From NCBI GenBank assembly GCA_964407105.1, contig CAYOUG010000003.1, positions 8,393 to 72,392 of the forward strand: 64,000 nucleotides of DNA, written 5' to 3'. Numbering within the stretch: the stretch's first letter is position 1; every line of letters begins with the position of its first letter. Below the pieces are notes generated by a model that made no database searches, had not been told where the DNA came from, and worked only from the letters and a program-made list of their open reading frames with translations. Source of the DNA: an uncultured Candidatus Saccharibacteria bacterium (lineage in GTDB: Bacteria > Patescibacteriota > Minisyncoccia > Phycocordibacterales > CALRHW01). The position numbers and the translations under genes were made by a program. Below, in pieces: positions 1 to 64,000 of this stretch.

Positions 1-15
1 TCTTAAAATTTAATT

Positions 16-1275
16 TTATTTCATTGTTCCCAAAATACGCTCCAAAGCAACAATATAAGCCGCATTTCTAAATGATGTGTTGTACTTGTTTTTTGTATTT
101 TTCAAATCATTAAACGCCGAAACCATAAGTGTATCAAGTTTTTTTAAAACATCCTCTTTTGTCCATTTTTCATTGTGCATATTTTGATACCACTCAAAAT
201 AACTTGTTGCTACTCCGCCGCTGTTTGCAAGAATGTCTGGTATTACAATCACCCCATTTTTTTCAAATATTTGATCTGCGACATCTGTTGTGGGTCCGTT
301 TGCCATTTCAATAATAAGTTTTGTTTTTATTTTTTGAGCATTTGCCTCTGTAAGTACATTTTCAAGGGCTGAGGGAACAAGAATATCAACATCGAGAGTA
401 AGAAGTTCTTCATTGGTAATATTTTTTGTACCAGTTAGCCCAGAAAGTGAACCTGTGGCTTTTTTGTGATTTTCCGCAACAACAACATCAATACCCGCTT
501 CATTATAAACACCACCCTTGCTGTCTGAAAGAGCTACCACCCTAAAGCCCTGTTTCATTACACTTTGAGCAAAATATGTTGCAACATTTCCAAAACCTTG
601 TATCGCAACAGTTTTTCTTGGAAAAGCAACCACTCCTCCGTTTAAAAGTTCTCGAACAATAAAACCACCACCAAAACCAGTAGCCTCTGTGCGACCCTCA
701 CTTCCACCATTTTTTATTGTTTTTCCAGTAAAAGTAGCGGGGGCTTTTTTGCCAATAATTTTCTCATATTCATCAAGCATGTATCCCATAATTACTCCAT
801 TTGTATTCACGTCTGGGGCGGGTACATCAAATTCTGGCCCTAAAATTTTATACATTTTTTGTACATATCCACGAGAAAGTCTTTCGATTTCACTCTCGCT
901 GAGTTTTTTTGGATCAACAATGATCCCACCTTTTCCGCCACCAAAAGGAACGTTCACCACCGCACATTTAAATGTCATCCAAAAACTTAATGCGCAAACC
1001 TCATTTAAATCTACTTGGGGATGAAAACGAATTCCACCTTTATATGGTCCACGAGCATTGTTGTGTTGGCTTCTAAAACCTTGAAAAATATGTTCACTTC
1101 CGTCATCCATTTTTATAGGAATGCTAACCTCAATATATCTATCCGTGTGTTTTAAACGCTCAATAAAATTTTGATTAAATTTTACAAGTTTTGTAGATTT
1201 TTCAAGTTGCATCAAAGCGTTTTCAAAAGGATTCAAATTTGTAGACATTATTTTTTTATTAAGATAGCTATACAA
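16..1275 (-). CDS. gdhA: NAD(P)-dependent glutamate dehydrogenase. The likely true start is the ATG at 1248 (MSTNLNPF...).
   Basis: The 419-aa ORF carries the GDH signature QHNNARGPYKGGIRFHP and the glycine-rich dinucleotide loop VPFGGGKGG. Confidence 0.9.
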   Translation of the reverse strand: MYSYLNKKIMSTNLNPFENALMQLEKSTKLVKFNQNFIERLKHTDRYIEVSIPIKMDDGSEHIFQGFRSQHNNARGPYKGGIRFHPQVDLNEVCALSFWMTFKCAVVNVPFGGGKGGIIVDPKKLSESEIERLSRGYVQKMYKILGPEFDVPAPDVNTNGVIMGYMLDEYEKIIGKKAPATFTGKTIKNGGSEGRTEATGFGGGFIVRELLNGGVVAFPRKTVAIQGFGNVATYFAQSVMKQGFRVVALSDSKGGVYNEAGIDVVVAENHKKATGSLSGLTGTKNITNEELLTLDVDILVPSALENVLTEANAQKIKTKLIIEMANGPTTDVADQIFEKNGVIVIPDILANSGGVATSYFEWYQNMHNEKWTKEDVLKKLDTLMVSAFNDLKNTKNKYNTSFRNAAYIVALERILGTMK

Positions 1276-1416
1276 TTATATATCACAAGCACTAGACTAT
1301 CCACACAAGATGTTTTATTCAGATTTAATTATTGTATAATTATTATTGTGTTGAGTTGAGATCTTAAACGGGTCGATCTCGATGTTATTAAGTTAAAAAA
1401 TAATTAAAATTATTGT

Positions 1417-1809
1417 ATGGCAAAGAAACTTGGTTTGGTATTAGGAATTGTGTTTGTTCTTATAGGCCTTCTTGGGTTTTTGAAAATGTCACTTGTTGGT
1501 CCAGAGGGTCTTTTTATGACAAACACGCTTCATGATTTGGTACATCTCATCACTGGTCTTATTTTCATTTTTGTAGCCATGAAATCTGTGGACAGTTTAG
1601 GTATTGTTTTCAAGGTTTTCGGTATTATCTACTTAGTGGTTGCGATACTTGGATTTATGGTTGGCGAAGGCATGGTTTTGGGTATTCTTAACGTAAACGG
1701 TGCAGACAACGTTCTCCATCTCATTCTTGGTGTTGTTATTCTTTTCTTTGGATTCAAATTTGGAAAGAAAGAAATGTCTTCAATGCCTCCTATGGGCGGA
1801 ATGCAATAA
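1417..1809 (+). CDS. Small polytopic membrane protein with four predicted transmembrane segments, function unknown.
   Basis: A 130-aa ORF that is hydrophobic throughout (LVLGIVFVLIGLLGFL..., VVILFFGF). Two hairpin terminators follow it. Confidence 0.55.
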   Translation: MAKKLGLVLGIVFVLIGLLGFLKMSLVGPEGLFMTNTLHDLVHLITGLIFIFVAMKSVDSLGIVFKVFGIIYLVVAILGFMVGEGMVLGILNVNGADNVLHLILGVVILFFGFKFGKKEMSSMPPMGGMQ

Positions 1810-1834
1810 ATTTAAATATTAAAAATATTTATTT

Positions 1835-1860
1835 AAAACCCCCCATTTGGGGGGTTTTAA
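1835..1860 (+). terminator. Intrinsic terminator hairpin (AAAACCCCCC-ATTT-GGGGGGTTTT).
   Basis: A perfect C6/G6 stem flanked by A and T runs, 26 nt downstream of the 1417..1809 stop. Confidence 0.5.
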
Positions 1861-1888
1861 ATTGTCTAAAACTAAATTAATAAAAAAT

Positions 1889-1937
1889 GCGGCGAGATCT
1901 CACCCTGAGACCTCGCCGCGTTGTTTTTTGTGGTTTT
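1889..1937. terminator. Bidirectional intrinsic terminator (GCGGCGAG...CTCGCCGC stem).
   Basis: A roughly 10-bp G+C-rich stem. On the + strand it is followed by GTTGTTTTTTGTGGTTTT. On the - strand it is followed by ATTTTTTATTAATTT. Confidence 0.5.
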
Positions 1938-1939
1938 CA

Positions 1940-2215
1940 CCACCCGTGTCAACAACTACCTACCGTTTTTGCCGGCGTGTCGTCGTTGACAACTTTTCTT
2001 TGTAAGGTTTACCCCCTGCTGACTATCCGGCACAACGCCAGACGTGTGCACTCCCTGGAACACTGATCCGTTCAGTGTACTCAACACAGAACGATGGTTC
2101 CTTCGAGAAGTGCGCGATCGATCCCCGCCACGGCTTGGGTTGAGATGCATAAAGCTCCCACAAACCAATTTGCGACTGGATACTCACAGTCAGGACATTC
2201 CCAACTGGTTCCAAT
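1940..2215 (-). ncRNA. Candidate structured ncRNA of unknown class in a G+C-rich block with no credible ORF. Its 3' end would be the terminator at 1889..1937.
   Basis: The block 1940-2260 is much more G+C-rich than its flanks. Only short overlapping ORFs with TTG/GTG starts are present. A promoter-like TTGACC-N16-TAGCAT lies on the minus strand at 2221-2248. Internal helices include GACTG...CAGTC and GGAACCAGUUGGG/CAAAUUGGUUU. Confidence 0.3.
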
Positions 2216-2285
2216 ATGAAATGCTAACACCGTCACCAAAAACGGTCAATTAAAAACTGTTTATAAACTACTTAAATATCAGAAG

Positions 2286-3545
2286 TTATCTGCTACGAAC
2301 TGTTGTAGATTTTATGGGTGTAGGAGGTAAAAGTACATGTTCAGCTTTTACTGCAGTATCAAGACCGTTTCTAAAAAGCAAGAAGGCATCGCCATATGAT
2401 TGGGCATTAAATTTTGTATCACCATCAGCAACAAATTTTACAGCAGTATCAAGTGTAGTAGATGCAACAGTAATATCTTCAGCTTTTACTGATAGTGTGG
2501 TGGTGGCAAGAAGAGACGAAACCTTTTCGATTTGATCTGTAGCGTCTTTTCTTTTATCCTCAGCTGCTGTTTTTCTTGTGTTTGTATCAGTTAGGGTGGG
2601 TATTTTTGATTCTACTTCCTCTCGTACTTGTGCAGATACTTCAATATTTGCTTGAACAGTATTTACAATTTGTATAAGTTCATCTGTCGAATCGTTGTTG
2701 ATGATATTTTTTTCTGAATTATTTATATCATTTGATATTTCTGAAATTTCTTTTTTGTTTTCTATAACAGCACTATTTTTTGTTGACATCTCTTCTGATG
2801 TTTTTGTTGTTGTAGATAAAAAAGTCTCGTTGTCAGCAATATCAATATCGCTTGAATCAACCGGATCATTTGTCGTATTTATCTCTGTGTTTTTATTGGT
2901 TTCTTTTTGAGAGATATTATTTTTTAAGCTTTCGGCGTTGATAAGCTTTTCTTGTTCCTGATCTTGTACAATTTGTACAAGTGTTTTGCTGTGTTCTTTT
3001 AAAGATTTTTCAAAATTTTCACCTATATCAATAGCAGTTTTAAGATCATTTGCTGCTTCTACTGTAGCGATTTGTTCTTGAACTTTGTGAGCGTGTTTTT
3101 CAAAATTTTTCTTAATTATATCTTTTGATTCGGTATCAAGCTCTCCCATTACCGCAAGAGTTTTTGCTTCCTCAAGGCGATCACCTGCGCGCTTTATTTC
3201 AAAATATGCACGAGATTCTGCGCCAAAAGAAAACCAAGACTGAACTTCTTCGTTCACATTAACCTTTATAGTATAAAGTGCGTTGTTTGGAAGAGCACTT
3301 TGAGCTGCAAGAGATGTGGTTCCACCCACAACAAACACAATAGCAATAGAAAGTATCGCTAAACGTTGTGTGTGAATAAAATACGGAGACATTATGTGCA
3401 ACCAACCACGAGAAATGACTGGTTTTCTTTCTGGATTGTTATAAACATAAGCATCAACAACACTCCATAAGCTTTGCTTTTCGTCTTTCGACAAAACAAC
3501 TTCTTGTTTAAAGTCTTGTATTATTTTGTTAAATTTTTTCGTCAT
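2286..3545 (-). CDS. Membrane-anchored putative anti-sigma factor of the DUF5667-like family, with a coiled-coil, low-complexity extracytoplasmic region.
   Basis: The 419-aa ORF overlaps the 3' end of the upstream ECF sigma gene by 17 nt. It has one transmembrane segment (LAILSIAIVFVVGG) and then a segment YTIKVNVNEEVQSWFSFGAESRAYFEIKRAGDRLEEAK that resembles DUF5667 proteins found next to sigma factors. Confidence 0.55.
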   Translation of the reverse strand: MTKKFNKIIQDFKQEVVLSKDEKQSLWSVVDAYVYNNPERKPVISRGWLHIMSPYFIHTQRLAILSIAIVFVVGGTTSLAAQSALPNNALYTIKVNVNEEVQSWFSFGAESRAYFEIKRAGDRLEEAKTLAVMGELDTESKDIIKKNFEKHAHKVQEQIATVEAANDLKTAIDIGENFEKSLKEHSKTLVQIVQDQEQEKLINAESLKNNISQKETNKNTEINTTNDPVDSSDIDIADNETFLSTTTKTSEEMSTKNSAVIENKKEISEISNDINNSEKNIINNDSTDELIQIVNTVQANIEVSAQVREEVESKIPTLTDTNTRKTAAEDKRKDATDQIEKVSSLLATTTLSVKAEDITVASTTLDTAVKFVADGDTKFNAQSYGDAFLLFRNGLDTAVKAEHVLLPPTPIKSTTVRSR

Positions 3546-4047
3546 TCTTGTTGTATATTTTTTTTATTTTTTCCAAACCACGGTGAATTTTTACGGAAAC
3601 ATTGTTTGGTGATTCACCGAGTATCTCTGAAATTTCTTTTACACTTAATCCATCTACATATTGCATAAACAAAATATCACGATATGTTTCCGGAATATTG
3701 TTAAGTAATTTTAAAGCTTCGGCACCATCAATTTTGTTGTGTAAATCTTGCACTGTTTCCATTCCAATATCTGTATCAAAACCCTTTTCAAACATAATAT
3801 CGAGTGAAGTGGGTTTCTTTTTTCGATAATGATCTACTACAAGATTGTGTGCTGTGCGATATAAAAAAGCTCGCATATTGTTTATTTCTCCACCCCCCTT
3901 AATGTATTCCCATGTCTTGATGAATGTCTCTTGCACTATATCTGTAGATTCTTCTCGGTTGAGGGTTTTGAAATAGCAATACCTAAATAGGGCGTCGGTA
4001 TAGTCCTTGTATGAATTCAAAAATTGTGCTTCTTTATGTGAATCCAT
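3529..4047 (-). CDS. ECF-type RNA polymerase sigma factor of the sigma-70 family.
   Basis: A 172-aa ORF with region 2 (ESTDIVQETFIKTWEYI...YRTAHNLVVDHYRKKK) and region 4 (GLSVKEISEILGESPNNVSVKIHRGLEKIKK). Confidence 0.85.
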   Translation of the reverse strand: MDSHKEAQFLNSYKDYTDALFRYCYFKTLNREESTDIVQETFIKTWEYIKGGGEINNMRAFLYRTAHNLVVDHYRKKKPTSLDIMFEKGFDTDIGMETVQDLHNKIDGAEALKLLNNIPETYRDILFMQYVDGLSVKEISEILGESPNNVSVKIHRGLEKIKKIYNKNDEKI

Positions 4048-4137
4048 ATATATGACGCAGACAAGCTACGTTTATTACAAGCATTATACATCATTTTAGC
4101 CCTTTAGATAAGGTTAATTTTGTAGTACACTACTATC

Positions 4138-5148
4138 ATGCAAAACCTTGGTAATGAAATTTTAAAATATAGCCTCGCGATTATTCTAAGCATTATTGGT
4201 ACCTTATTTGTAATACAAGGAGGATTATCTCCAAAAGATCCTAGTTTTTCTTTAATCAAAATCGTATTTCAATCAAAAGAGATGTGTTTTTCTGTTATAG
4301 GAATATTTCTTTGTTTTTTACTTATAGGAATATTAATTACATACGCAAGCTCCATCAAAGCAAAACTTAATGAGATGCGCAGAATAAATCGCGTACTCAA
4401 AAAAAAGGATGAGATAAAAACAAGATTTTTGGCTTTTGCGGCACACAATCTAAGAACTCCAGCCACCGCTTTACGTTGGAGTTTGAATGATTTTTTAAAA
4501 AATGAATACGGTCATTTAACAAAAGAACAACAAACATCAATACAAGAGTTGTATTCTGTGTCTTTAAATATGCTCAATATTATCGAAGATTTTTTGGATA
4601 TTAGTAAACTTGAATTACAAAAATTTGAAATTGGATTAAAACCCGTTTCTTTAAAAGACTTTAAAAAAGAGATATTGGAAGTAATAGAAGAATTTAGACC
4701 GCTGGCAAAAGAACACGATGTTGCTATAAGTAACTTATTTGATATCAACGAAGATGCGCGTATCCACATTGACCTTTCTCAAATAGTGCGCGTTATAGAG
4801 AATTTAATTGAGAATGCAATCAACTACACCCTTTCAAAAGGCACTATTTTAATAGATATTTCAAACAATAAAGAAAATATATCGTTTAGCATAAAGGACA
4901 CTGGTATTGGTATTCCAAAAGCAGAGCATCCAATGATTTTTGGTGAATTTTTTAGATCATCAAACGCCAAAAGACACAAAAGTACAGGAAGTGGTATCGG
5001 TCTATACTTGGCTAGAAAAATTATTGAGGCACACGGTGGTAAAATTAAATTTATATCAGAAGAAAACGTTGGTTCAACATTTTCCTTTACTCTACCAATG
5101 ATAAAAGAAAGTGAGCGTGAGGTAACAAACGTATTTAAAAAACTATAA
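4138..5148 (+). CDS. Sensor histidine kinase with two N-terminal transmembrane segments, a HisKA domain and a HATPase_c domain.
   Basis: The H-box FLAFAAHNLRTPATAL, the N-box ENAINYT, and the G-boxes DTGIGIP and GSGIGLYLARKIIEAHGGKI are all present. It is transcribed divergently from the sigma operon. Confidence 0.85.
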   Translation: MQNLGNEILKYSLAIILSIIGTLFVIQGGLSPKDPSFSLIKIVFQSKEMCFSVIGIFLCFLLIGILITYASSIKAKLNEMRRINRVLKKKDEIKTRFLAFAAHNLRTPATALRWSLNDFLKNEYGHLTKEQQTSIQELYSVSLNMLNIIEDFLDISKLELQKFEIGLKPVSLKDFKKEILEVIEEFRPLAKEHDVAISNLFDINEDARIHIDLSQIVRVIENLIENAINYTLSKGTILIDISNNKENISFSIKDTGIGIPKAEHPMIFGEFFRSSNAKRHKSTGSGIGLYLARKIIEAHGGKIKFISEENVGSTFSFTLPMIKESEREVTNVFKKL

Positions 5149-5170
5149 GATATAGTTTTTTAAATTATAT

Positions 5171-5836
5171 CTATACTGTATTTTTAGCAAAACGACGAGC
5201 AACCAAAACTGCTAACACCAGTGTGATTGGTGTTAAAACCATAAAAAGCTTCGCAAGTGCCGTCATTCCTATTGTAATAACAATAAGATGAGTAAGAAGA
5301 CAGCAAAAAACAATACTACATCCACCACCAATACATTTTATTTTTGAAGCTGAATCATTTATCCGAAAACCCTGAAAAATCATATAAAAACCAGATAACG
5401 TTCCAGAAACAATAATCATATATATAGATGCAATATCCATCACCATCATTGGTTCGTAAGAATTTAAAAGCATAAAAGCAATCATTGCCCAACCAACCAA
5501 AAGTGCAACATAAAAAAGTGCTTTTCGCGTACCGTCATTTAAAATAGCACTAAGTGGAAATTTGAACACAAAAGCAGAACCGGTGACCGCTCCAAAAGAC
5601 CCCAAGTACATAAGTAATGGTAAATCCCAATACATGCTTGCGCCACCAAGAAGATGGAAAATAGACATACCCCCCAAAAATCCTAAAAATGCATTCATGA
5701 GTTCACTTCGGTCGTGTCGAAATGGACCGGTTAAAAGTACAACAGCCATAATAAAAAACACTATGCCAGAAAGCCACAACCAAAATATTGGCTCTGGTAA
5801 ATTTGTCATCTGCACCAAATCATTTCCGTAATTCAT
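5171..5836 (-). CDS. Polytopic membrane protein, function unknown.
   Basis: The 221-aa ORF is hydrophobic throughout, with roughly 6-7 transmembrane segments. Confidence 0.5.
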   Translation of the reverse strand: MNYGNDLVQMTNLPEPIFWLWLSGIVFFIMAVVLLTGPFRHDRSELMNAFLGFLGGMSIFHLLGGASMYWDLPLLMYLGSFGAVTGSAFVFKFPLSAILNDGTRKALFYVALLVGWAMIAFMLLNSYEPMMVMDIASIYMIIVSGTLSGFYMIFQGFRINDSASKIKCIGGGCSIVFCCLLTHLIVITIGMTALAKLFMVLTPITLVLAVLVARRFAKNTV

Positions 5837-5893
5837 AAGAATAAATTTATAACTATAATGATTTATTATAACAAAGAAATTTAATATAAAAAA

Positions 5894-6460
5894 CTATCTT
5901 GTCTCATTATTTTTAAACAATTCGCGTCGATCTTCTTCTTCAAACTTATCGTAATGCTTTTTTTCAATATTCTTATTTAAAAAAACATCCTCTTGAGATT
6001 TTTCATGATTTTCAACCAAATCACCGTTTCCATTAAACCACTCACGAATTGCACTTATACTAAAATAAAATGATAATAAAAACATGACCGACAACACAAG
6101 ATTAATAGCAAAAAATATAAGACCATAGTCGGTAAAAACATCCACAGACTGAAAACTAGAAATTAATAAACCAAACATAGATACAATTGCATCAAGAACA
6201 ATTGTCCATTTGTATTTTTTGTTTGTAAACGCAGCAAGAAACACGAGGAGTACCACACTAAAAATAGATAGCGGTCGTAAAATTGATGAAATTTCGTTTC
6301 TAAAAAATGGCAACGTAACCACAATAAGTAAAGAAACAATAAGAAAAGTTCTTGAAACATTTTCACTTAAATAACCAATAACTCCGCGTATCTTTTTTAC
6401 TCGGGCAAGAGCTCGAAGTGGATAAAAACTAGGTGGATCATAGTCATCCCTTTCTGACAT
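5894..6460 (-). CDS. Membrane protein, function unknown.
   Basis: A 188-aa ORF with 3-4 transmembrane segments and a charged C-terminal tail. Confidence 0.5.
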   Translation of the reverse strand: MSERDDYDPPSFYPLRALARVKKIRGVIGYLSENVSRTFLIVSLLIVVTLPFFRNEISSILRPLSIFSVVLLVFLAAFTNKKYKWTIVLDAIVSMFGLLISSFQSVDVFTDYGLIFFAINLVLSVMFLLSFYFSISAIREWFNGNGDLVENHEKSQEDVFLNKNIEKKHYDKFEEEDRRELFKNNETR

Positions 6461-20340: not shown

Positions 20341-20898
20341 TCAAGCCACTGTCACCGCCACCGTCTTTGCACTCGACCGTTTGGTCAAGTTTAAAGAAAT
20401 TGGATCTGGTTGCCACTGATCCGGCAAGTTTCTTGCTTTTCTCGCCAGAGCGTCATCCTTACCAAGAAGGTGTCGAATAACAGCGACCATTGGTGGATCA
20501 CCGGTCTTCCAACTATTAACATCGCCGTTGACAACGATGTCGACGCGCTGATTCTTGTACATCTCCCCAGCTTCGGTTGGTGCACCGTTCGCGCTCTGGC
20601 GAAAAGCGAATCGGCCACACACCGATACCCAAGCTTCTTCCTGAGCAATTCGACGGTCCCGAGGTTTGTCCACCAAACCAAACACCGACGAATTCAGATT
20701 TGCGGGCCTAACCTCCACTCCGTGAAAAACAGTAGGACGAGGCACCTCAACTTCCTCCACTGGGAGTTCGGCGTTCTTTTTGCCAGACTTCTTTCTGTGG
20801 TACTCCGCTCGTGCACGAGCCCCCATTACTGCTCTCTCGTACTCGGTCTGCGCAAACTGTTGTGCAAAAGACAAACCGGATAAATTACGACTGGTCAC
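20341..20898 (-). CDS. Orphan hypothetical protein on a G+C-rich islet, with a GTG start. An alternative ATG start lies at 20826 (MGARARAEY).
   Basis: A 185-aa open frame spans a roughly 0.65-kb block that is far more G+C-rich than its flanks. I see no recognisable domain. A candidate SD (GGTGGTG) lies 6 nt before the GTG. A promoter-like TTGCGT-N17-TACATT lies upstream. Confidence 0.5.
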   Translation of the reverse strand: MTSRNLSGLSFAQQFAQTEYERAVMGARARAEYHRKKSGKKNAELPVEEVEVPRPTVFHGVEVRPANLNSSVFGLVDKPRDRRIAQEEAWVSVCGRFAFRQSANGAPTEAGEMYKNQRVDIVVNGDVNSWKTGDPPMVAVIRHLLGKDDALARKARNLPDQWQPDPISLNLTKRSSAKTVAVTVA

Positions 20899-58848: not shown

Positions 58849-59034
58849 TTTTATTTTCTACTAAATTTATTTAGTTCCTAATGTTTAAATTATACAACAA
58901 AAAATATAATGAGTAATACACACATGCGACAAATTTTAAAAATATCTCGTGTGCATTATTAATACATTGGTGCTATTGTAAAAAAAGAATTCGTCTTGAA
59001 TCGAATCAAAAATCTTCAGCACAAGGAGCTCTCC

Positions 59035-60432
59035 ATGGAAACTAAATGGTCACCCGAAATTATTCAGGGTGGTATGGGAATGTTTGTCTCTGGCCCACGT
59101 TTGGCCAGAGCCGTATCGATGTGTGGTCAACAAGGCACGTTGTCTGGTGTTTGTTTAGAAAGGGCGATGACTCACATTCTTCAGTTGGGAGATCAGGGTG
59201 GACACTTAAGGCGTGCTCTTTCACATTTTCCATTCCCCGATGATGCACAGAAGGTCTTAAAACTTTTCTTTGTGCAGGGTGGAATTCCAAAAGGCAAGGC
59301 GTTTAGAGATGCGCCGATTTTCAATGTAAATCCATCCAAACTTCTAATCACCCTCACGGTTTGTGCCAATTTTGCGTTTGTTTGGCTTGCAAAAGAAGGT
59401 CATAGTGGTCGCATAAGCATCAATTATCTGGAAAAGATAGCGATGCCACATGTGTACAGTATCACGGGCGCAATCCTTGCCGGCGTAGACTTCATCACAA
59501 TGGGAGCGGGAATCCCCCTTCAAATTCCATCAGTAATTGATGCAATCGTAGAAGGAAAAACAGCAACTTATCGCATACCCGTTGAGGGCACCGATCTCAC
59601 GAGTCATACGATGAGTTTCAATCCGGAGCAATTTTTTGGGGGCAAATTACCCTCAATGAAAAAACCCGGATTCATTCCCATAATTGCGTCAAACCTTCTG
59701 GCTCGTGTTTTTGTAGACAAACTGCCTGCAAACCAACAGGTTTCTGGGTTCGTGGTGGAAGAGCCAACCGCAGGCGGACACAATGCTCCACCCAGAAGAC
59801 CACCGGATTATGGACCAAAAGACATGGTGGATTATTCCAAACTCGTTGAGCTTGGAATACCGTTTTGGATAGGTGGTTCTTACGCTTCTCCAGAAAAACT
59901 TGCCTTCGCAAAATCTGTGGGCGCACAAGGTGTGCAGGTTGGTTCTATTTTTGCACTCTGCGAAGAGTCAGAACTAGATCCAAACATCAAAACAGAAATT
60001 AGAAGACAGGGGTTTTTGGGTGAGTTGCAAATCAAAACCGACACGAGAATATCCCCAACAGGATTTCCGTTTAAGGTGGTGGTGTTGCCTGGAACAATTT
60101 CTGAAAGAAGTGTTCTAGACGCCAGACCACGTGTCTGTGACAAGGGCGCGCTCGTTGTTCTCTATGAAAGGCCAGACGGATCGGTGGGATATAAATGTCC
60201 TAGTGAGCCGACAGAAAAATATCTGGCTAAGGGTGGAAAGGTTGAGGACACAGAACACAGGGGGTGCATTTGCAACGGACTGCTTTGCGCTGTTGGATTA
60301 AACTACAGTCGCGAACCAGCCGTTGTTACACTTGGAGATGATGTGGGTTTTCTTCATCACTTGATGCGAAACGAGGGTGACTCATACACCGCAGCCAAGG
60401 CGGTAGCCTACATGTTGGGTCCTCAAAAATAG
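59035..60432 (+). CDS. Nitronate monooxygenase / 2-nitropropane dioxygenase (NMO) family flavoenzyme on a G+C-rich islet. The start was chosen at METKW with an SD; the six-frame ORF begins at 58996.
   Basis: The NMO N-terminal motif IIQGGMGMFVSGPRLARAVSMCGQQGTLSG is present, along with ...VVEEPTAGGHN. An SD, AAGGAG, lies 6 nt upstream. G+C content is visibly elevated, and a perfect 10-bp terminator follows. Confidence 0.75.
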   Translation: METKWSPEIIQGGMGMFVSGPRLARAVSMCGQQGTLSGVCLERAMTHILQLGDQGGHLRRALSHFPFPDDAQKVLKLFFVQGGIPKGKAFRDAPIFNVNPSKLLITLTVCANFAFVWLAKEGHSGRISINYLEKIAMPHVYSITGAILAGVDFITMGAGIPLQIPSVIDAIVEGKTATYRIPVEGTDLTSHTMSFNPEQFFGGKLPSMKKPGFIPIIASNLLARVFVDKLPANQQVSGFVVEEPTAGGHNAPPRRPPDYGPKDMVDYSKLVELGIPFWIGGSYASPEKLAFAKSVGAQGVQVGSIFALCEESELDPNIKTEIRRQGFLGELQIKTDTRISPTGFPFKVVVLPGTISERSVLDARPRVCDKGALVVLYERPDGSVGYKCPSEPTEKYLAKGGKVEDTEHRGCICNGLLCAVGLNYSREPAVVTLGDDVGFLHHLMRNEGDSYTAAKAVAYMLGPQK

Positions 60433-60539: not shown

Positions 60540-60917
60540 TTAAGATTTTTTTGTAGCGGCTTTCTTTTTAAGAGAAGTTTTTGATTTTACTGCTTTATTA
60601 AGATTTTTCCATTGCTTTTTTAAGTCATCTACAATTTCGGCCATATCTCCTTGGCTATTTTTTATTTTTTTCTTGTAGTCTGCGGCAACTGTGTCTATGA
60701 TGGCATGATAAATTGGTTCTGTAACTTCCTTTGCTGATTCTAATTTTTCGACAATATCACCCTTCATTTTAATTACCCAAGCTTTGGCGTGCTTTTGGTG
60801 TTTTTTACCTTTTGGTCCAAAGAAAAAATAAGCTCCAGCAGCAAGACTAGCCAAACTTACTCCAATTGTCGTATATTTTAATATATTTGATGTTTCTTTT
60901 GTTTTTTGATTTACCAT
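60540..60917 (-). CDS. Small protein with one N-terminal transmembrane segment and a Lys-rich tail, function unknown.
   Basis: A 125-aa ORF with a hydrophobic segment TIGVSLASLAAGAYFFF. Confidence 0.45.
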   Translation of the reverse strand: MVNQKTKETSNILKYTTIGVSLASLAAGAYFFFGPKGKKHQKHAKAWVIKMKGDIVEKLESAKEVTEPIYHAIIDTVAADYKKKIKNSQGDMAEIVDDLKKQWKNLNKAVKSKTSLKKKAATKKS

Positions 60918-60957
60918 ATTGTTTTATTTTAATTTAGTATAAATTAGTAAATATTTT

Positions 60958-61239
60958 TTAATCTATATCTTTTACAGAACCCTTTTTCATTAACTTTTTC
61001 TTTTTACGTATTGGAGGAAAAAAGAATCGAAAGACAAAATTATTTTCGAGTCGTTCTTTTAAATCCTCAATAAATTCTTCTGATTCCTTAAACTCACTTT
61101 TCAAAGCTTCGGATAATTTATATAAATTTTTTCCAGCTTTTATTAAATAAAACAAAAGAAAAGAAATTAGTGTTGTTAACACTACGGTTGCAATACAAGC
61201 AATAAAGAAAAAAATGTCTGCTTTTACTAGTGTTTCCAC
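60958..61239 (-). CDS. Small membrane protein, function unknown.
   Basis: A 93-aa ORF with one or two transmembrane segments. Confidence 0.4.
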   Translation of the reverse strand: METLVKADIFFFIACIATVVLTTLISFLLFYLIKAGKNLYKLSEALKSEFKESEEFIEDLKERLENNFVFRFFFPPIRKKKKLMKKGSVKDID

Positions 61240-61414
61240 ATTCAGATTATAACACTTTCATAGAAAAAATTCAAACTAAAAATCACCTCGTATAATTCTT
61301 GAGATTGATTGATTTTACGCACTTTTTCAGTTAAGGTTTTATCGGAATCAGCTCATCGAACAAAATAGTACCGTCCTTAATCACAGCTCAAATTTAGAAA
61401 GGATATCAATGCAA

Positions 61415-61455
61415 GAAAAAACAGCCCCGTATTTCATCAATACGCGGGTTGTTTT
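61415..61455 (-). terminator. Intrinsic terminator downstream of 61467..61871 (CCCGCGTATT-GATGA-AATACGGGG followed by CTGTTTTTTCTT on the minus strand).
   Basis: An imperfect stem of about 9 bp with a T tract on the minus strand. Confidence 0.45.
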
Positions 61456-61466
61456 TTTAGATTAAT

Positions 61467-61871
61467 TTACACGGTACTTTTCTGCACAAGCTCTCGATAC
61501 TGTGCACGATTTCGCCACAAGAAATATATATTGAGTAGGAAAAGAATGTTTGCCATAATCGCGCCGGTTGTAAATATTCCCCCATCTAAAAACATATGGA
61601 ATGAAAAGATATTGATAGTAATCGGAGCAAGAAGCACTGCCGCAAATGCCATGCGGTTTGTAATAATAAGAAAAAGGCACACCACAAATACAATCGTCAT
61701 GATGTAAGTGATGTATCCTGCCGCCGTCATGAGTACTGTAATAAATGCAAACGCTTCCAAAGTATTGTACATATCTGCAGTGGGTGCTGGGAAAATTCCA
61801 AATGATCCTAAAATAGGAGCGACTAAAAGCAAACCCAGAACGACGCGAAAAATAATATTAAGTACTTTCAT
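61467..61871 (-). CDS. Polytopic membrane protein, function unknown.
   Basis: A 134-aa ORF with four hydrophobic segments. Confidence 0.5.
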   Translation of the reverse strand: MKVLNIIFRVVLGLLLVAPILGSFGIFPAPTADMYNTLEAFAFITVLMTAAGYITYIMTIVFVVCLFLIITNRMAFAAVLLAPITINIFSFHMFLDGGIFTTGAIMANILFLLNIYFLWRNRAQYRELVQKSTV

Positions 61872-61957: not shown

Positions 61958-62467
61958 TTATTTTAAATAACTATCAAAATAAATAGCGTGGCAAGTATAT
62001 CCGCCAGGATTCTTTTGCAAATAATCCTGATGATAATCTTCAGCTAAATAAAATTTTTCCAAAGGTTCAAGCGTTGTGACCACTGGATCTTTCCAGCGTC
62101 CCGATTCATTGACGATTTTTATAAAATTTTCAGCTTCTTTTTTCTCTTCCTCATTTCCATAAAAAATTGCCGAGCGATACGAAGTACCACGGTCATTGCC
62201 CTGTTGATTTAGAGTAGTTGGATTATGGATTTGAAAGAAAAAATCTAATAGTTTTTTATAAGAAGTTTTATTTTCATCATATTCAATTTCTACCGCTTCG
62301 GCATGACCTTCGTGATTTTCATAAGTTGGATTTGTAACCTTACCCCCAGTATATCCAACCTCCGTATTTATCACGCCGGGCTGTTGTCTAATCAAATCTT
62401 CAAGCCCCCAAAAACAACCCCCCGCTAATATTATTTTTTTAATCATAAAATTATTTTTCCGAAACAC
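61958..62467 (-). CDS. msrA: Peptide methionine sulfoxide reductase A.
   Basis: The GCFWG active-site motif is present ([20 protein letters not shown]). Confidence 0.9.
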
Positions 62468-62485
62468 CAGTCGGTAAAGCTAAGC

Positions 62486-62848
62486 TCACTTGCCCGGCAG
62501 GAATTTCATTGAAATTGAATTGACGCAATAGCGTTGATTCTTCTCAGTTAATTTTTCACCAGTAAATAGATGCCCTAAATGCCCGCCACATTTCGCGCAA
62601 GTTATTTCGGTACGCCGACCGTCTTTATCCAGACTTTTATAAATCGCCCCCGATATTTCATCATCAAAACTCGGCCAACCACAATCAGACTCAAATTTAT
62701 CTTTTGAATTATAAAGAGGTGCTTCGCATTGTCGGCAGACATAAACACCTGTTTCTTTATTGTTCACATATTCCCCAGTAAACGGCGCTTCCGTGCCCTT
62801 ATCAATTATCACTCGCCCCTCTTCTTCTGTTAGTTTATTTAAATTCAT
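62486..62848 (-). CDS. msrB: Peptide methionine sulfoxide reductase B.
   Basis: Zinc-binding CxxC pairs (CRQCEAPL...[12 protein letters not shown]) and RYCVNS are present. Confidence 0.9.
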
Positions 62849-62906
62849 AATTCCATTTTATCATTTTTTCTAAAAATTTCCTTTTGGTTTTTTCATAAAG
62901 TTCATT

Positions 62907-62933
62907 TTAATTTTTACGCATCATTTTTACGCA
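62907..62933. repeat. Tandem direct repeat of 12 bp (ATTTTTACGCAT, two copies) in the msrB upstream region.
   Basis: The sequence reads aATTTTTACGCATcATTTTTACGCATgg. It could be a regulator-binding site. Confidence 0.3.
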
Positions 62934-63123
62934 TGGAAATAAAATGCCAGACATAAATATATACTTGCTTTTCGTGTTTACGTATTCAAACAAAAATCTA
63001 TTTTTTGCTTTTGATTGGGTGGCGAGGGTGGTTTAGTTTTTTGAAAAAAGAAAGAGCCCTGAGCGAAATAAGTTTCGCAAAGGGCCCTGATGCTGGACTT
63101 TCCAGTCTCGCTTAGGTCTCGCT

Positions 63124-63738
63124 TTAGGCGGCGACCAGTGCACAGCCGAACTTCGGCGCGCTCAGCATCTCGCAGAGCTCCGGCGGAAATTCATACGACC
63201 CGCTGCTCGTCATGCCGATCGAGGTCGAAACACCATCAATGGCCATCGGACCTCTGCCACGAAGCATCTCGCCCCGCATACCATTGTTGCTGTCGCGAGT
63301 CTGCGGATTGTCGTAGAAGCTGAGCACGAACTCCACAATAACCGAGAAGAAGAACTTGTACTCCTCATTCGTGAGCTCGACAATCGTGTTGCCACGCTTC
63401 ACCGTGATCTGAAAGAGGCGCTGGACCTCGCTATCGTCCTTGGTCAGCGGTAAGCTGTCAAGTTGGTTGATCGGAAATCCAAACACCAACTCATAGTCGA
63501 AACTGGTGCCGGCGACCTTGACATGGCCCTTGTAGCGGACACCGTCTTGAACCTGCTCGACGTACTGTTCAATCGAGATTTTTCTCGTTTTGATCTTGGG
63601 CTTCTTCTTGGTCTTCTTCTTGGGCTTCTCGACGGTCTCCATGTCACGGTTGTAATTCGCCAACATGTCATCCGTCGACTGCCCCCGATCATCGGGGGTA
63701 CAATCGCACATCACTCGACCACAGATTGGGCAAGGCAT
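63124..63738 (-). CDS. Orphan hypothetical protein with an N-terminal zinc-ribbon-like CxxC...CxC motif, on a G+C-rich islet next to tRNA-Asn. The start was chosen at MPCPICG; the six-frame ORF extends to a GTG at 63792.
   Basis: An SD, AAGGAGA, lies 6 nt upstream of the ATG at 63738. The product is MPCPICGRVMCDC followed by a Lys-rich linker (KKKTKKKPKIKTRK) and a roughly 150-aa domain I do not recognise. A sampled 60 nt is about 68% G+C. Confidence 0.55.
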   Translation of the reverse strand: MPCPICGRVMCDCTPDDRGQSTDDMLANYNRDMETVEKPKKKTKKKPKIKTRKISIEQYVEQVQDGVRYKGHVKVAGTSFDYELVFGFPINQLDSLPLTKDDSEVQRLFQITVKRGNTIVELTNEEYKFFFSVIVEFVLSFYDNPQTRDSNNGMRGEMLRGRGPMAIDGVSTSIGMTSSGSYEFPPELCEMLSAPKFGCALVAA

Positions 63739-63811
63739 TTTCGTCTCCTTCTGAAAGCCGTTTATTCGTCTTTGAGGGCAGTAACACACCACCCTTAACG
63801 ATCCACTTTAA

Positions 63812-63840
63812 ATTATACACCTAAATGATATAATTGTCAA
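63812..63840 (-). promoter_or_regulatory. Perfect-consensus sigma-70 promoter TTGACA-N17-TATAAT on the minus strand.
   Basis: The minus strand reads TTGACAattatatcatttaggtgTATAAT. It sits about 65 nt upstream of the islet ORF start. Confidence 0.6.
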
Positions 63841-63869
63841 GTATTACCTCGAACCTCAAAAACATCAAG

Positions 63870-63903
63870 CAATAAAAGACAAAACCCCACAAATTGTGAG
63901 GTT
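63870..63903 (-). terminator. Intrinsic terminator just downstream of tRNA-Asn (AAACCUCACA-AUU-UGUGGGGUUU followed by UGUCUUUUAUU).
   Basis: A 10-bp stem with one G:U pair and a T-rich tail on the minus strand. Confidence 0.45.
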
Positions 63904-63915
63904 TCGTCACTAGGG

Positions 63916-63988
63916 CTCCGCGGCTAGGGATCGAACCTAGGACCTAGCGATTAACAGTCGCTTGCTCTACCAGCTGAGCTACCGCGGA
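63916..63988 (-). tRNA. tRNA-Asn (anticodon GUU). Only CC of the CCA end is encoded.
   Basis: The reverse-complement folds as TCCGCGG-TA-GCTC-AGCTGGTAGA-GC-A-AGCGA-CTGTTAA-TCGCT-AGGTC-CTAGG-TTCGATC-CCTAG-CCGCGGA-G. U1:A72 is present, as in E. coli tRNA-Asn. Confidence 0.85.
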
Positions 63989-64000
63989 ATGAATTTCTTT

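Follow-up and report, generated by a model that had tools for sequence, protein, structure and literature searches.

The window analysed here, a stretch of 64,000 nucleotides with an overall G+C content of 36.7% from an A+T-rich genome of the Patescibacteria (candidate phyla radiation, CPR), contains an autonomous single-gene unit of promoter, gene and terminator on the minus strand (about 63037–63845), which occupies the gap between the terminator of a tRNA-Asn gene and msrB. The unit is compositionally foreign to the window genome and, judging from sequence comparison between loci, is mobile on evolutionary time scales. Its gene belongs to an unnamed family of cytoplasmic α+β proteins of ~150 residues, and this family is over-represented directly downstream of tRNA genes of many identities. 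What is new is a single-gene islet close to a tRNA gene, without recombinase and with an orphan protein family; neither the family nor this pattern was found described in the literature.

The features of the locus, in the direction of transcription, are as follows.

63913–63989, minus strand: tRNA-Asn gene (anticodon GTT), called by ARAGORN and matched by the Rfam tRNA model at 63916–63988 with 69.3 bits.
63868–63908, minus strand: terminator-like hairpin of the tRNA gene (14-pair stem at 63878–63908, then a T-rich tail), from a terminator scan and the sequence.
63812–63840, minus strand: sigma-70 promoter TTGACA-N17-TATAAT, with the −35 element at 63840–63835 and the −10 element at 63817–63812, matching the consensus at 12 of 12 positions.
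63739–63811, minus strand: 5′ leader of 73 nt and 44% G+C, peculiar to the window copy (sequence and G+C).
63744–63750, minus strand: Shine-Dalgarno sequence AAGGAGA, spaced by five nucleotides from the ATG at 63738.
63124–63738, minus strand: protein-coding gene of 204 codons plus a stop codon, the sole open reading frame (ORF) of the unit (ORF list and translation).
63595–63738, minus strand: N-terminal extension, residues 1–48 (alignments; predicted local distance difference test, pLDDT, below 56).
63127–63594, minus strand: core family domain, residues 49–204 (profile search, AlphaFold model m9898e32cc293, conserved columns).
63089–63109, minus strand: small 3′ hairpin right after the stop codon (folding; only 63% paired across the family alignment).
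63043–63088, minus strand: long-stem intrinsic terminator GGGCCC-UU-GCGAAA / UUUCGC-UC-GGGCUC, with the hairpin at 63053–63088 followed by a T-run at 63043–63052 (folding).
63037–63597, minus strand: block with nucleotide homology to other family loci, comprising the core coding sequence and the 3′ hairpins (blastn against all fetched loci).

An earlier note, made from the letters alone, had proposed a G+C-rich single-gene islet at this place. The tRNA-Asn gene followed by a terminator-like hairpin, the textbook promoter, the AAGGAGA ribosome-binding site and the 3′ terminator are as described there. The ORF is single, as stated, but encodes 204 residues plus a stop codon and not 205, and the G+C-rich block does not directly abut the tRNA terminator, from which it is separated by ~75 nt of A+T-rich, promoter-bearing sequence. 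The tRNA gene is the same-strand upstream neighbour of the cassette and ends 175 nt before its ATG. The cassette promoter is the sole perfect TTGACA-N17-TATAAT in the 64-kb window (chance expectation 0.02). At the 3′ side, the 91-nt segment made up of the stop codon, both hairpins and the T-run has a folding energy of −29.2 kcal/mol (z = −3.0), and in the window copy a 12-nt duplication of GCGAGAC precedes the small hairpin. Identity within the homology block is 66–80% where the blastn match covers most of the block, and the end of this block at 63037 appears to mark the right-hand limit of the imported unit. The msrB gene starts at 62848, 188 nt beyond the cassette terminator.

G+C amounts to 51.0% over 63040–63990 and to 54.3% over the ORF, with a 200-nt peak of 60% at 63100–63299; the 60–68% given in the earlier note is never reached, but the islet is a strong outlier. 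G+C at third codon positions (GC3) is 0.725 for the islet ORF versus a mean of 0.277 (standard deviation 0.087) for 48 window ORFs, ~5 standard deviations above the mean, and none of the 47 other ORFs comes near it (next highest, 0.50 and 0.41). The three codon positions have G+C values of 0.51, 0.38 and 0.74. Because the second-position value is ordinary and GC3 is high, the excess is synonymous and does not result from amino-acid composition.

Loci of the family were fetched from the one-genome-per-species GTDB set (12 loci) and from JGI metagenomes (37 loci), together with exact-match contigs; removal of duplicates left ~28 distinct genomic contexts, and 29 contexts were used in the G+C comparison. 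The 12 GTDB loci come from 185,579 species genomes, one per genome and nearly all labelled Patescibacteria. Overall, the family was found almost only in Patescibacteria/CPR metagenomes, many of the matches lying on contigs of less than 5 kb. A near-consensus cTTGACA-N17-TAnnnT promoter is present at the same relative position in most family loci, and some loci have a terminator-like hairpin just ahead of it. The terminator helix is common to 20 loci, in which it is 95% paired and shows compensatory changes in 12 of 13 pairs; the covariation values were matched by none of 500 shuffles, and slid controls score far lower. The neighbours are unrelated between contexts: 101 flanking ORFs from 33 loci, subjected to all-against-all BLASTP and to Pfam, contain no recurrent partner and represent housekeeping genes such as those for ABC transporters, aminoacyl-tRNA synthetases, ribosomal protein L2, MraZ and NusB. 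No integrase or transposase is found among the 25 commonest Pfam families of these ORFs.

Two loci, L026 and L027, have in common an 820-bp unit of 88% identity that extends from ~200 nt before the ATG to ~150 nt past the stop codon. Their flanks cannot be aligned and have a G+C of 0.43 and 0.40, versus 0.61 and 0.60 for the gene; no terminal repeats were seen at the unit boundaries, only scattered short motifs. Gene G+C exceeds flank G+C in 25 of the 29 contexts (median +8.4 points; Wilcoxon p = 2.6e-5), and some hosts at 0.50–0.56 G+C, which match the gene in composition, could be the donor pool. Truncated gene copies are present at L019:4923–5174 (C-terminal ~60 codons) and L056:22–153 (~44 codons), the former retaining the conserved terminator and having 49% G+C (52% over the 171-nt matched segment) in a flank of 31%. 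Both fragments are decaying copies, which is why the gene, apparently fast-evolving, is likely to be dispensable as well. The foreign origin put forward in the earlier note is supported by composition at synonymous sites, sporadic homologues, unconserved neighbours and the 88%-identical unit in unrelated flanks. Two tandem paralogs of 154 residues each occur in L016 (4286–4750 and 5001–5465) and in L047; the pair has diverged, the upstream L016 paralog being 43% identical to the L023 gene, and the downstream one (5001–5465) has host-level G+C (0.32 vs 0.34), unlike nearly all other copies.

In 11 of the 28 contexts (39%), a same-strand tRNA gene ends no more than 600 nt upstream of the start codon. 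The adjoining tRNAs are Asn(GTT) in the window, Ser(GGA), Leu(CAA), Thr(TGT), Arg(TCG), Tyr(GTA), Ala(TGC) twice, Leu(TAG) and Leu(GAG); the eleventh, in L027, is cut off at the contig end with its identity unreadable, and overall at least nine tRNA species are represented. The binomial probability of such adjacency is 5e-8 at a background of 5% and 4e-5 at 10%, the lower background reflecting the window, in which at most ~5% of genes have a same-strand upstream tRNA neighbour. One further context has a convergent tRNA-Gly 124 nt downstream of the gene. The other 17 of the 28 contexts, together with two distant family members, have no adjoining tRNA.

As the earlier note had said, integrase and direct-repeat scars are missing: no integrase was found within 10 kb of the window copy, and no repeats within 62800–64000 flank the gene. 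The partial tRNA-Asn 3′ repeat that the note proposed to look for is absent from the whole window (last 16–25 nt, up to 4 mismatches in 25). Similarly, in the 11 other tRNA-adjacent loci checked, no tRNA 3′-end repeat flanks the gene. An exact repeat of at least 10 nt within 2.5 kb downstream of the tRNA is absent from 10 of 11 loci and present only in L023. In that locus (L023:547–856), a partial copy of tRNA-Ala(TGC) begins ~125 nt after the intact gene, runs from the anticodon arm to the 3′ end and has a 55-nt insert within it. This partial copy is located upstream of the family gene, not around it, and looks like the scar of an integrase-type event at that tRNA.

The reading favoured here, which we consider fairly probable, combines horizontal gain from a G+C-richer CPR donor, host recombination, and retention in terminator-to-promoter gaps. 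A cassette from such a donor, probably another CPR lineage, would enter an A+T-rich CPR genome horizontally, and in the present genome we infer its insertion at the tRNA-Asn/msrB gap. Insertion would be passive, via host recombination and not by an enzyme encoded on the element, because the unit lacks a recombinase, shows no duplication of an att or target site and no terminal inverted repeats, and is single-copy per genome. Plausibly, DNA taken up by natural transformation would recombine illegitimately or at microhomology anchors; Saccharibacteria have been shown to be naturally competent (PMC10633639). Copies would then survive preferentially in terminator-to-promoter gaps, for instance behind tRNA genes, since a copy there interrupts no operon. 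The earlier note had left a choice between an old, eroded island and a non-canonical insertion. The second is the better of the two and a plausible one, strengthened by the occurrence across the family of a same-strand tRNA in 11 of 28 contexts.

Several points weigh against this reading, of which the mechanism is the weakest part. Under a passive safe-harbour model, copies should be enriched at transcription-unit boundaries of every kind, and it is doubtful that such a model explains a tRNA adjacency of 39%; an active tRNA-directed mechanism may therefore exist. The G+C excess in 25 of 29 contexts could reflect an intrinsic constraint on codon choice or mRNA structure instead of recent transfer, and GC3 reaches 0.82–0.88 in some copies, above what any sampled host would give. 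Profile and Foldseek searches returned no homology or fold match to support a function. Finally, an empty tRNA-Asn/msrB junction was not found among the contigs of MsrB homologues, none of which comes from a close relative. This comparison covered MsrB homologues with their contigs and then the members of the 90% MsrB cluster. Only a ~890-bp msrB-msrA block (window 61958–62848, minus strand) is common to the nearest relatives (L057–L067), at 72–81% nucleotide identity, and the flanks of msrBA differ on both sides in every relative compared, so their data hold no comparable junction.

The msrBA pair itself is found in shifting contexts among the relatives. It adjoins a family gene in two contexts, the window and L036; two such cases are within chance for ~120 neighbours, and the pairing in L036 is probably a coincidence.

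Foremost among the alternatives, though unlikely, is a native CPR gene that has been inherited vertically, with a G+C content raised intrinsically (codon usage, mRNA stability, high expression) and a patchy distribution caused by loss or rearrangement. Such a history would fit the confinement of the family mainly to Patescibacteria-labelled genomes, the family-wide G+C excess and the host-like G+C of copies in L016 and L047. The gene looks very highly expressed, to judge by its consensus promoter and strong Shine-Dalgarno sequence, and the low synonymous divergence (dS 0.36 at 71% identity) is compatible with constraint at synonymous sites. It is difficult to reconcile, however, with carriage by only 12 of 185,579 species genomes, with the lack of common synteny across ~28 contexts and the 88%-identical unit in unrelated flanks, or with a GC3 that is far lower in all 47 other window ORFs; the truncated copies, moreover, show dispensability. 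The earlier note had regarded a clear homologue in a native CPR protein family as an argument against foreign origin. The family is indeed CPR-associated, but it is patchy and compositionally deviant in most of its hosts.

It is improbable as well that the gene is selfish and mobilises itself, its ~150-residue protein being a tRNA-gene-directed homing-like nuclease, a minimal recombinase or a transposase that recognises tRNA genes or the terminators of these genes and promotes copying of its own cassette beside them. If true, a tRNA-directed enzyme would explain the spread among CPR bacteria, the persistent G+C mismatch, insertion without repeats, and the Cys-cluster/poly-Lys segment of the window copy as a DNA-binding add-on. 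The tRNA adjacency is strong and varied (11 of 28 contexts, at least nine tRNA species), and the unit is a single gene with conserved 3′ hairpins, at some loci with a hairpin ahead of the promoter, and with no accessory recombinase nearby. The protein evolves fast, the window copy has gained a Cys cluster and poly-Lys of the module type used for DNA binding, and a fold without solved relative leaves space for a new activity. A self-copying element is nevertheless hard to see in a family with one copy per genome in 12 species genomes (the tandem pair in L016 and L047 being the exception), without terminal repeats or target duplications, and away from tRNA genes in 17 of 28 contexts and two distant members. 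Pfam, NCBIfam and PDB profiles detected no GIY-YIG, HNH, LAGLIDADG, PD-(D/E)xK, HUH or recombinase signature, and Foldseek gave no match to a nuclease or transposase.

Two known kinds of minimal mobile gene offer a comparison. Insertion sequences of the IS200/IS605 type are ~0.7 kb long and encode one ~150-residue TnpA, with end hairpins and no inverted repeats or target duplication. The cassette is like them in its ~0.8-kb length, the ~150-residue family ORF, the absence of repeats and the conserved hairpins near its ends. Unlike them, it encodes a protein without Y1/HUH transposase signature (in the same profile collections) or Foldseek match to TnpA, it is single-copy per genome and in the window, and its copies differ by 12–50% rather than being near-identical. 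Free-standing homing endonuclease genes include the T4 seg and mob genes, among them SegB in the T4 tRNA region. The cassette shares with these a stand-alone arrangement, its own expression signals, an association with tRNA regions and a sporadic occurrence, and the Zn-binding-type module and basic linker of the window copy recall their modular DNA-binding add-ons. Neither motif nor fold of the GIY-YIG, HNH, LAGLIDADG, PD-(D/E)xK or EDxHD endonucleases was detected in its protein, however. Intron-less homing requires homologous flanks between carriers, whereas the cassette flanks are not homologous.

A still less probable origin is the remnant of an island or prophage, in which tRNA-Asn would have received a tyrosine-integrase element at its 3′ end, with one cargo gene as all that is left of that element. 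The position directly 3′ of a tRNA and the atypical composition would agree with this, tRNA integration does occur in CPR genomes, as the partial tRNA-Ala duplicate in L023 suggests, and the adjoining 5 kb (msrBA, three small ORFs and a gene for a nitronate monooxygenase (NMO)-like protein) looks variable between relatives. Yet no partial tRNA-Asn copy exists in the 64 kb and none of the 11 other loci has one flanking the gene; the L023 duplicate lies on the upstream side of the gene, not around it. Integrase and phage genes are missing from the surroundings of every copy, and IMG/VR contains no relative. Independent erosion to one and the same gene beside at least nine tRNAs would be implausible. 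The old, eroded island of the earlier note is not supported: nothing recurs in the ~28 contexts beyond this one gene and its promoter and terminator, and neither integrase remnant nor flanking tRNA repeat was found in the window or the 11 other tRNA-adjacent loci.

Known tRNA-linked islands and islets of the P4 type carry a tyrosine integrase specific for one tRNA and are bounded by partial tRNA repeats, attL and attR. The cassette is like them in lying immediately 3′ of a tRNA, in its unlike-host composition and in its patchy distribution. It differs in having neither integrase nor partial tRNA repeat, in comprising 0.8 kb and one gene, and in recurring as a family beside at least nine tRNA species; the resemblance is one of position only.

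In A+T-rich genomes, a G+C-rich patch often turns out to be a structural RNA, and the Logan contig with the islet breaks at the tRNA, but a structured non-coding RNA or an assembly chimera in place of a protein gene is very improbable, given codon-position G+C of 0.51/0.38/0.74, conservation of the protein across 353 clusters with a ratio of nonsynonymous to synonymous divergence (dN/dS) below 1 and a confident fold prediction, the absence of an Rfam match, and the presence of the protein on both the 87.6-kb NCBI contig and the 14.9-kb Logan contig, the latter spanning the islet-msrB junction. At the locus Rfam matches only the tRNA and not the islet gene, the codon statistics of which are those of coding sequence; the non-coding RNA was rejected on these grounds. 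A viral origin was also rejected, as the IMG/VR scan returned no relative.

Of the known systems, the unit works most like a phage moron. Morons, described by Hendrix, Juhala and colleagues, are reportedly autonomous promoter-gene-terminator units of deviant composition between prophage genes. The cassette likewise consists of one gene between a sigma-70 promoter and an intrinsic terminator of its own, has deviant G+C and shows no recombination scars. Unlike morons, it is found amid chromosomal housekeeping genes and not in a prophage, it has no IMG/VR relative or significant PHROG match, and its family prefers sites downstream of tRNA genes. Integron cassettes consist of a promoterless ORF and attC and are arrayed next to intI. 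The unit resembles them in being mobile, in having a single ORF and in its structured 3′ element, an imperfect palindrome, but it has a strong promoter of its own, its 3′ hairpin and T-run form an intrinsic terminator without attC R/L boxes, and it is single, with no array and no IntI found nearby. Taken together, the cassette lacks the defining features of integrase islands, IS200/IS605 elements, integron cassettes and the known homing endonuclease families.

CPR/Patescibacteria genomes are tiny, and to our knowledge little has been learned of how these bacteria gain genes. Here a complete, ready-to-express single gene would be moving between CPR lineages, preferentially behind tRNA genes, without integrase machinery or scars. 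If insertion is passive, tRNA-side sites would be safe harbours in which competent ultrasmall bacteria naturally gain genes, and such sites would be of use since transformation makes it possible to engineer Saccharibacteria. If insertion is active, the unit would represent a minimal mobile element of a new kind, and the fold of its protein would be new as well. Either way, an uncharacterised family of 353 clusters, with a C-terminal PKFGC motif, no solved structural relative, and conserved 5′ and 3′ RNA elements, gives structural and functional studies of CPR accessory biology a concrete object.

The part of the protein described as an unknown domain in the earlier note belongs to this recognisable family. 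A word-indexed search yielded 50 homologous proteins at 43–71% identity, ~155 residues each, all of which cover only window residues 49–204; these residues align end to end with 49 homologues at 49–71% identity and contain all family motifs. Profile searching with HMMER in 1.84 billion representatives recovered 353 clusters (at 50% identity) with E ≤ 1e-3, 239 of them with E ≤ 1e-10, and nearly all are stand-alone proteins of 135–165 residues. The family signatures are IEQVxDGxxYKG, FDYELxF, ELTxEEYxFF, FYxxPQTR and a C-terminal ExCxMLSxPKFGC, and the window copy ends with the near-invariant LSAPKFGC. In a 101-sequence alignment PKFGC has an invariant Phe, with the Lys and final Cys at least 90% conserved. 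This pattern suggests an accessory protein that works through its C-terminal Cys (C199 in the window copy), by redox, metal or covalent chemistry. The dN/dS of the islet gene is 0.30–0.57 versus its relatives, and the synonymous divergence noted above is low for the amino-acid divergence. The protein is probably highly expressed, because of the consensus promoter and strong ribosome-binding site.

No match above noise was obtained for the window protein, distant members or two family profiles in Pfam, PHROGs, NCBIfam, PADLOC or PDB profiles. AlphaFold modelling of the core domain from the 101-sequence alignment reached a pLDDT of 90.6 and a predicted template modelling score of 0.83. The predicted α+β fold comprises, in order, a three-strand meander, two short helices, a β-hairpin, a long helix bundle and a variable loop, after which a C-terminal strand and helix are predicted to dock back onto the core domain. 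The structure and profile check suggested in the earlier note has produced a confident core model, but no PDB profile or Foldseek match. Foldseek searches with two AlphaFold models, against the PDB (both) and BFVD (the first, full-length model), gave no significant match: the best E-values were 0.017–0.26 with TM-scores of at most 0.36, the core-domain model reaching at best 0.26 in the PDB, and the sole resemblance is a superficial MHC/EPCR-like platform of sheet plus helices. A precursor of a ribosomally synthesised and post-translationally modified peptide, with a long leader and a Cys-bearing C-terminal core, was considered and set aside: there is no NHLP/Nif11 match and no recurrent neighbour gene, and the C-terminal segment is predicted to be packed into the fold (pLDDT ~96).

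Within this family the window copy is, from the alignments, a derived variant that has lost the canonical start and acquired an extension with a CxxC-x4-CxC cluster and a Lys-rich linker. Residues 1–48 were found in the window copy alone among family members; the N-terminal extensions of other database members look like mis-called starts. The family start position reads ATC in the window copy, no alternative start is nearby, and the strong Shine-Dalgarno sequence serves the ATG 48 codons upstream. GC3 is 0.75 in the extension versus 0.73 in the core; this equality indicates that the extension is coding sequence from the same compositional background, and it was probably already fused to the core in the donor. 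The extension contains the Cys cluster CPICGRVMCDC (nucleotides 63700–63732), an acidic stretch and the Lys-rich linker. A zinc ribbon consists of two Cys knuckles (CxxC...CxxC) on a β-ribbon that bind one Zn. The earlier note had assigned the Cys cluster to this class; the four Cys are present as CxxC-x4-CxC (C3, C6, C11 and C13), but within 11 residues the spacing is too tight for a classical ribbon, and the label exceeds the evidence. The cluster is modelled at a pLDDT of 45–55, and the only sequence match of the Cys segment is one of 13 bits, between residues 3–62 and positions 438–491 of a Rad50 model. The linker KKKTKKKPK corresponds to a 12-nt unit (GGGCTTCTTCTT on the plus strand) repeated three times in tandem at 63587–63634 (minus strand), and part of it evidently arose by 12-nt tandem duplication. 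The combined Cys-cluster and poly-Lys add-on suggests a nucleic-acid association of the window copy.

Many family loci have a conserved 5′ leader of ~100 nt without counterpart in the window copy, the leader of which shows no nucleotide homology to it by blastn and leader alignment. Sites of the conserved leader are:

L024:256–360.
L025:292–396.
L027:272–376.
L014:4911–5015.
L011:2882–2986.
L016:4896–5000.
L047:2908–3012.
L020:570–674.

Its layout is a pair of hairpins and then CCACG-N7-CGTGG-TAACCC-AGTACATTGACAGGAGG-N9-ATG; L020 has GCGTCG/CGGCGU in place of the second stem, with pairing kept. It matches no Rfam family and may be an undescribed cis-regulatory element.

Other observations concern single contexts. 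The distant member P0292 (L068:2622–5558) adjoins an AAA_25 ATPase gene and has a GIY-YIG (LEM-3-like) gene ~2.3 kb downstream, a context more mobile-element-like than other family contexts. The ends of contig Ga0209727_1000127 (92,783 bp; L031 and L034) are identical inverted copies of at least 6,053 bp (86731–92783 and 1–6053, reversed), each with a family gene; they are either a fold-back assembly artefact or the ends of a replicon with long terminal inverted repeats. At a contig end, L024:1–98 is the reverse complement of the sequence directly 3′ of the cassette (versus L026:3207–3307), which is probably a k-mer-length fold-back and not a genuine inverted repeat.

In the window, the A+T-rich spacer between the islet terminator and msrB contains an exact 12-nt direct repeat, ATTTTTACGCAT, in two copies 13 nt apart (62910–62934), which could be an operator or a piece of the msrB promoter region. 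The NMO-like gene (PF03060; 478 residues, 58996–60432, plus strand, 47% G+C) is 2.7 kb from the islet and has the third highest GC3 of the window (0.41); three small ORFs at 60540–61871 have no significant Pfam match. Together with msrBA, these genes may form a variable region of 5 kb beside tRNA-Asn. A second compositional outlier, an ORF of 185 residues at 20341–20898 (minus strand) with 52% G+C and a GC3 of 0.50, has no Pfam match and no adjoining tRNA, and it may be a second foreign gene.

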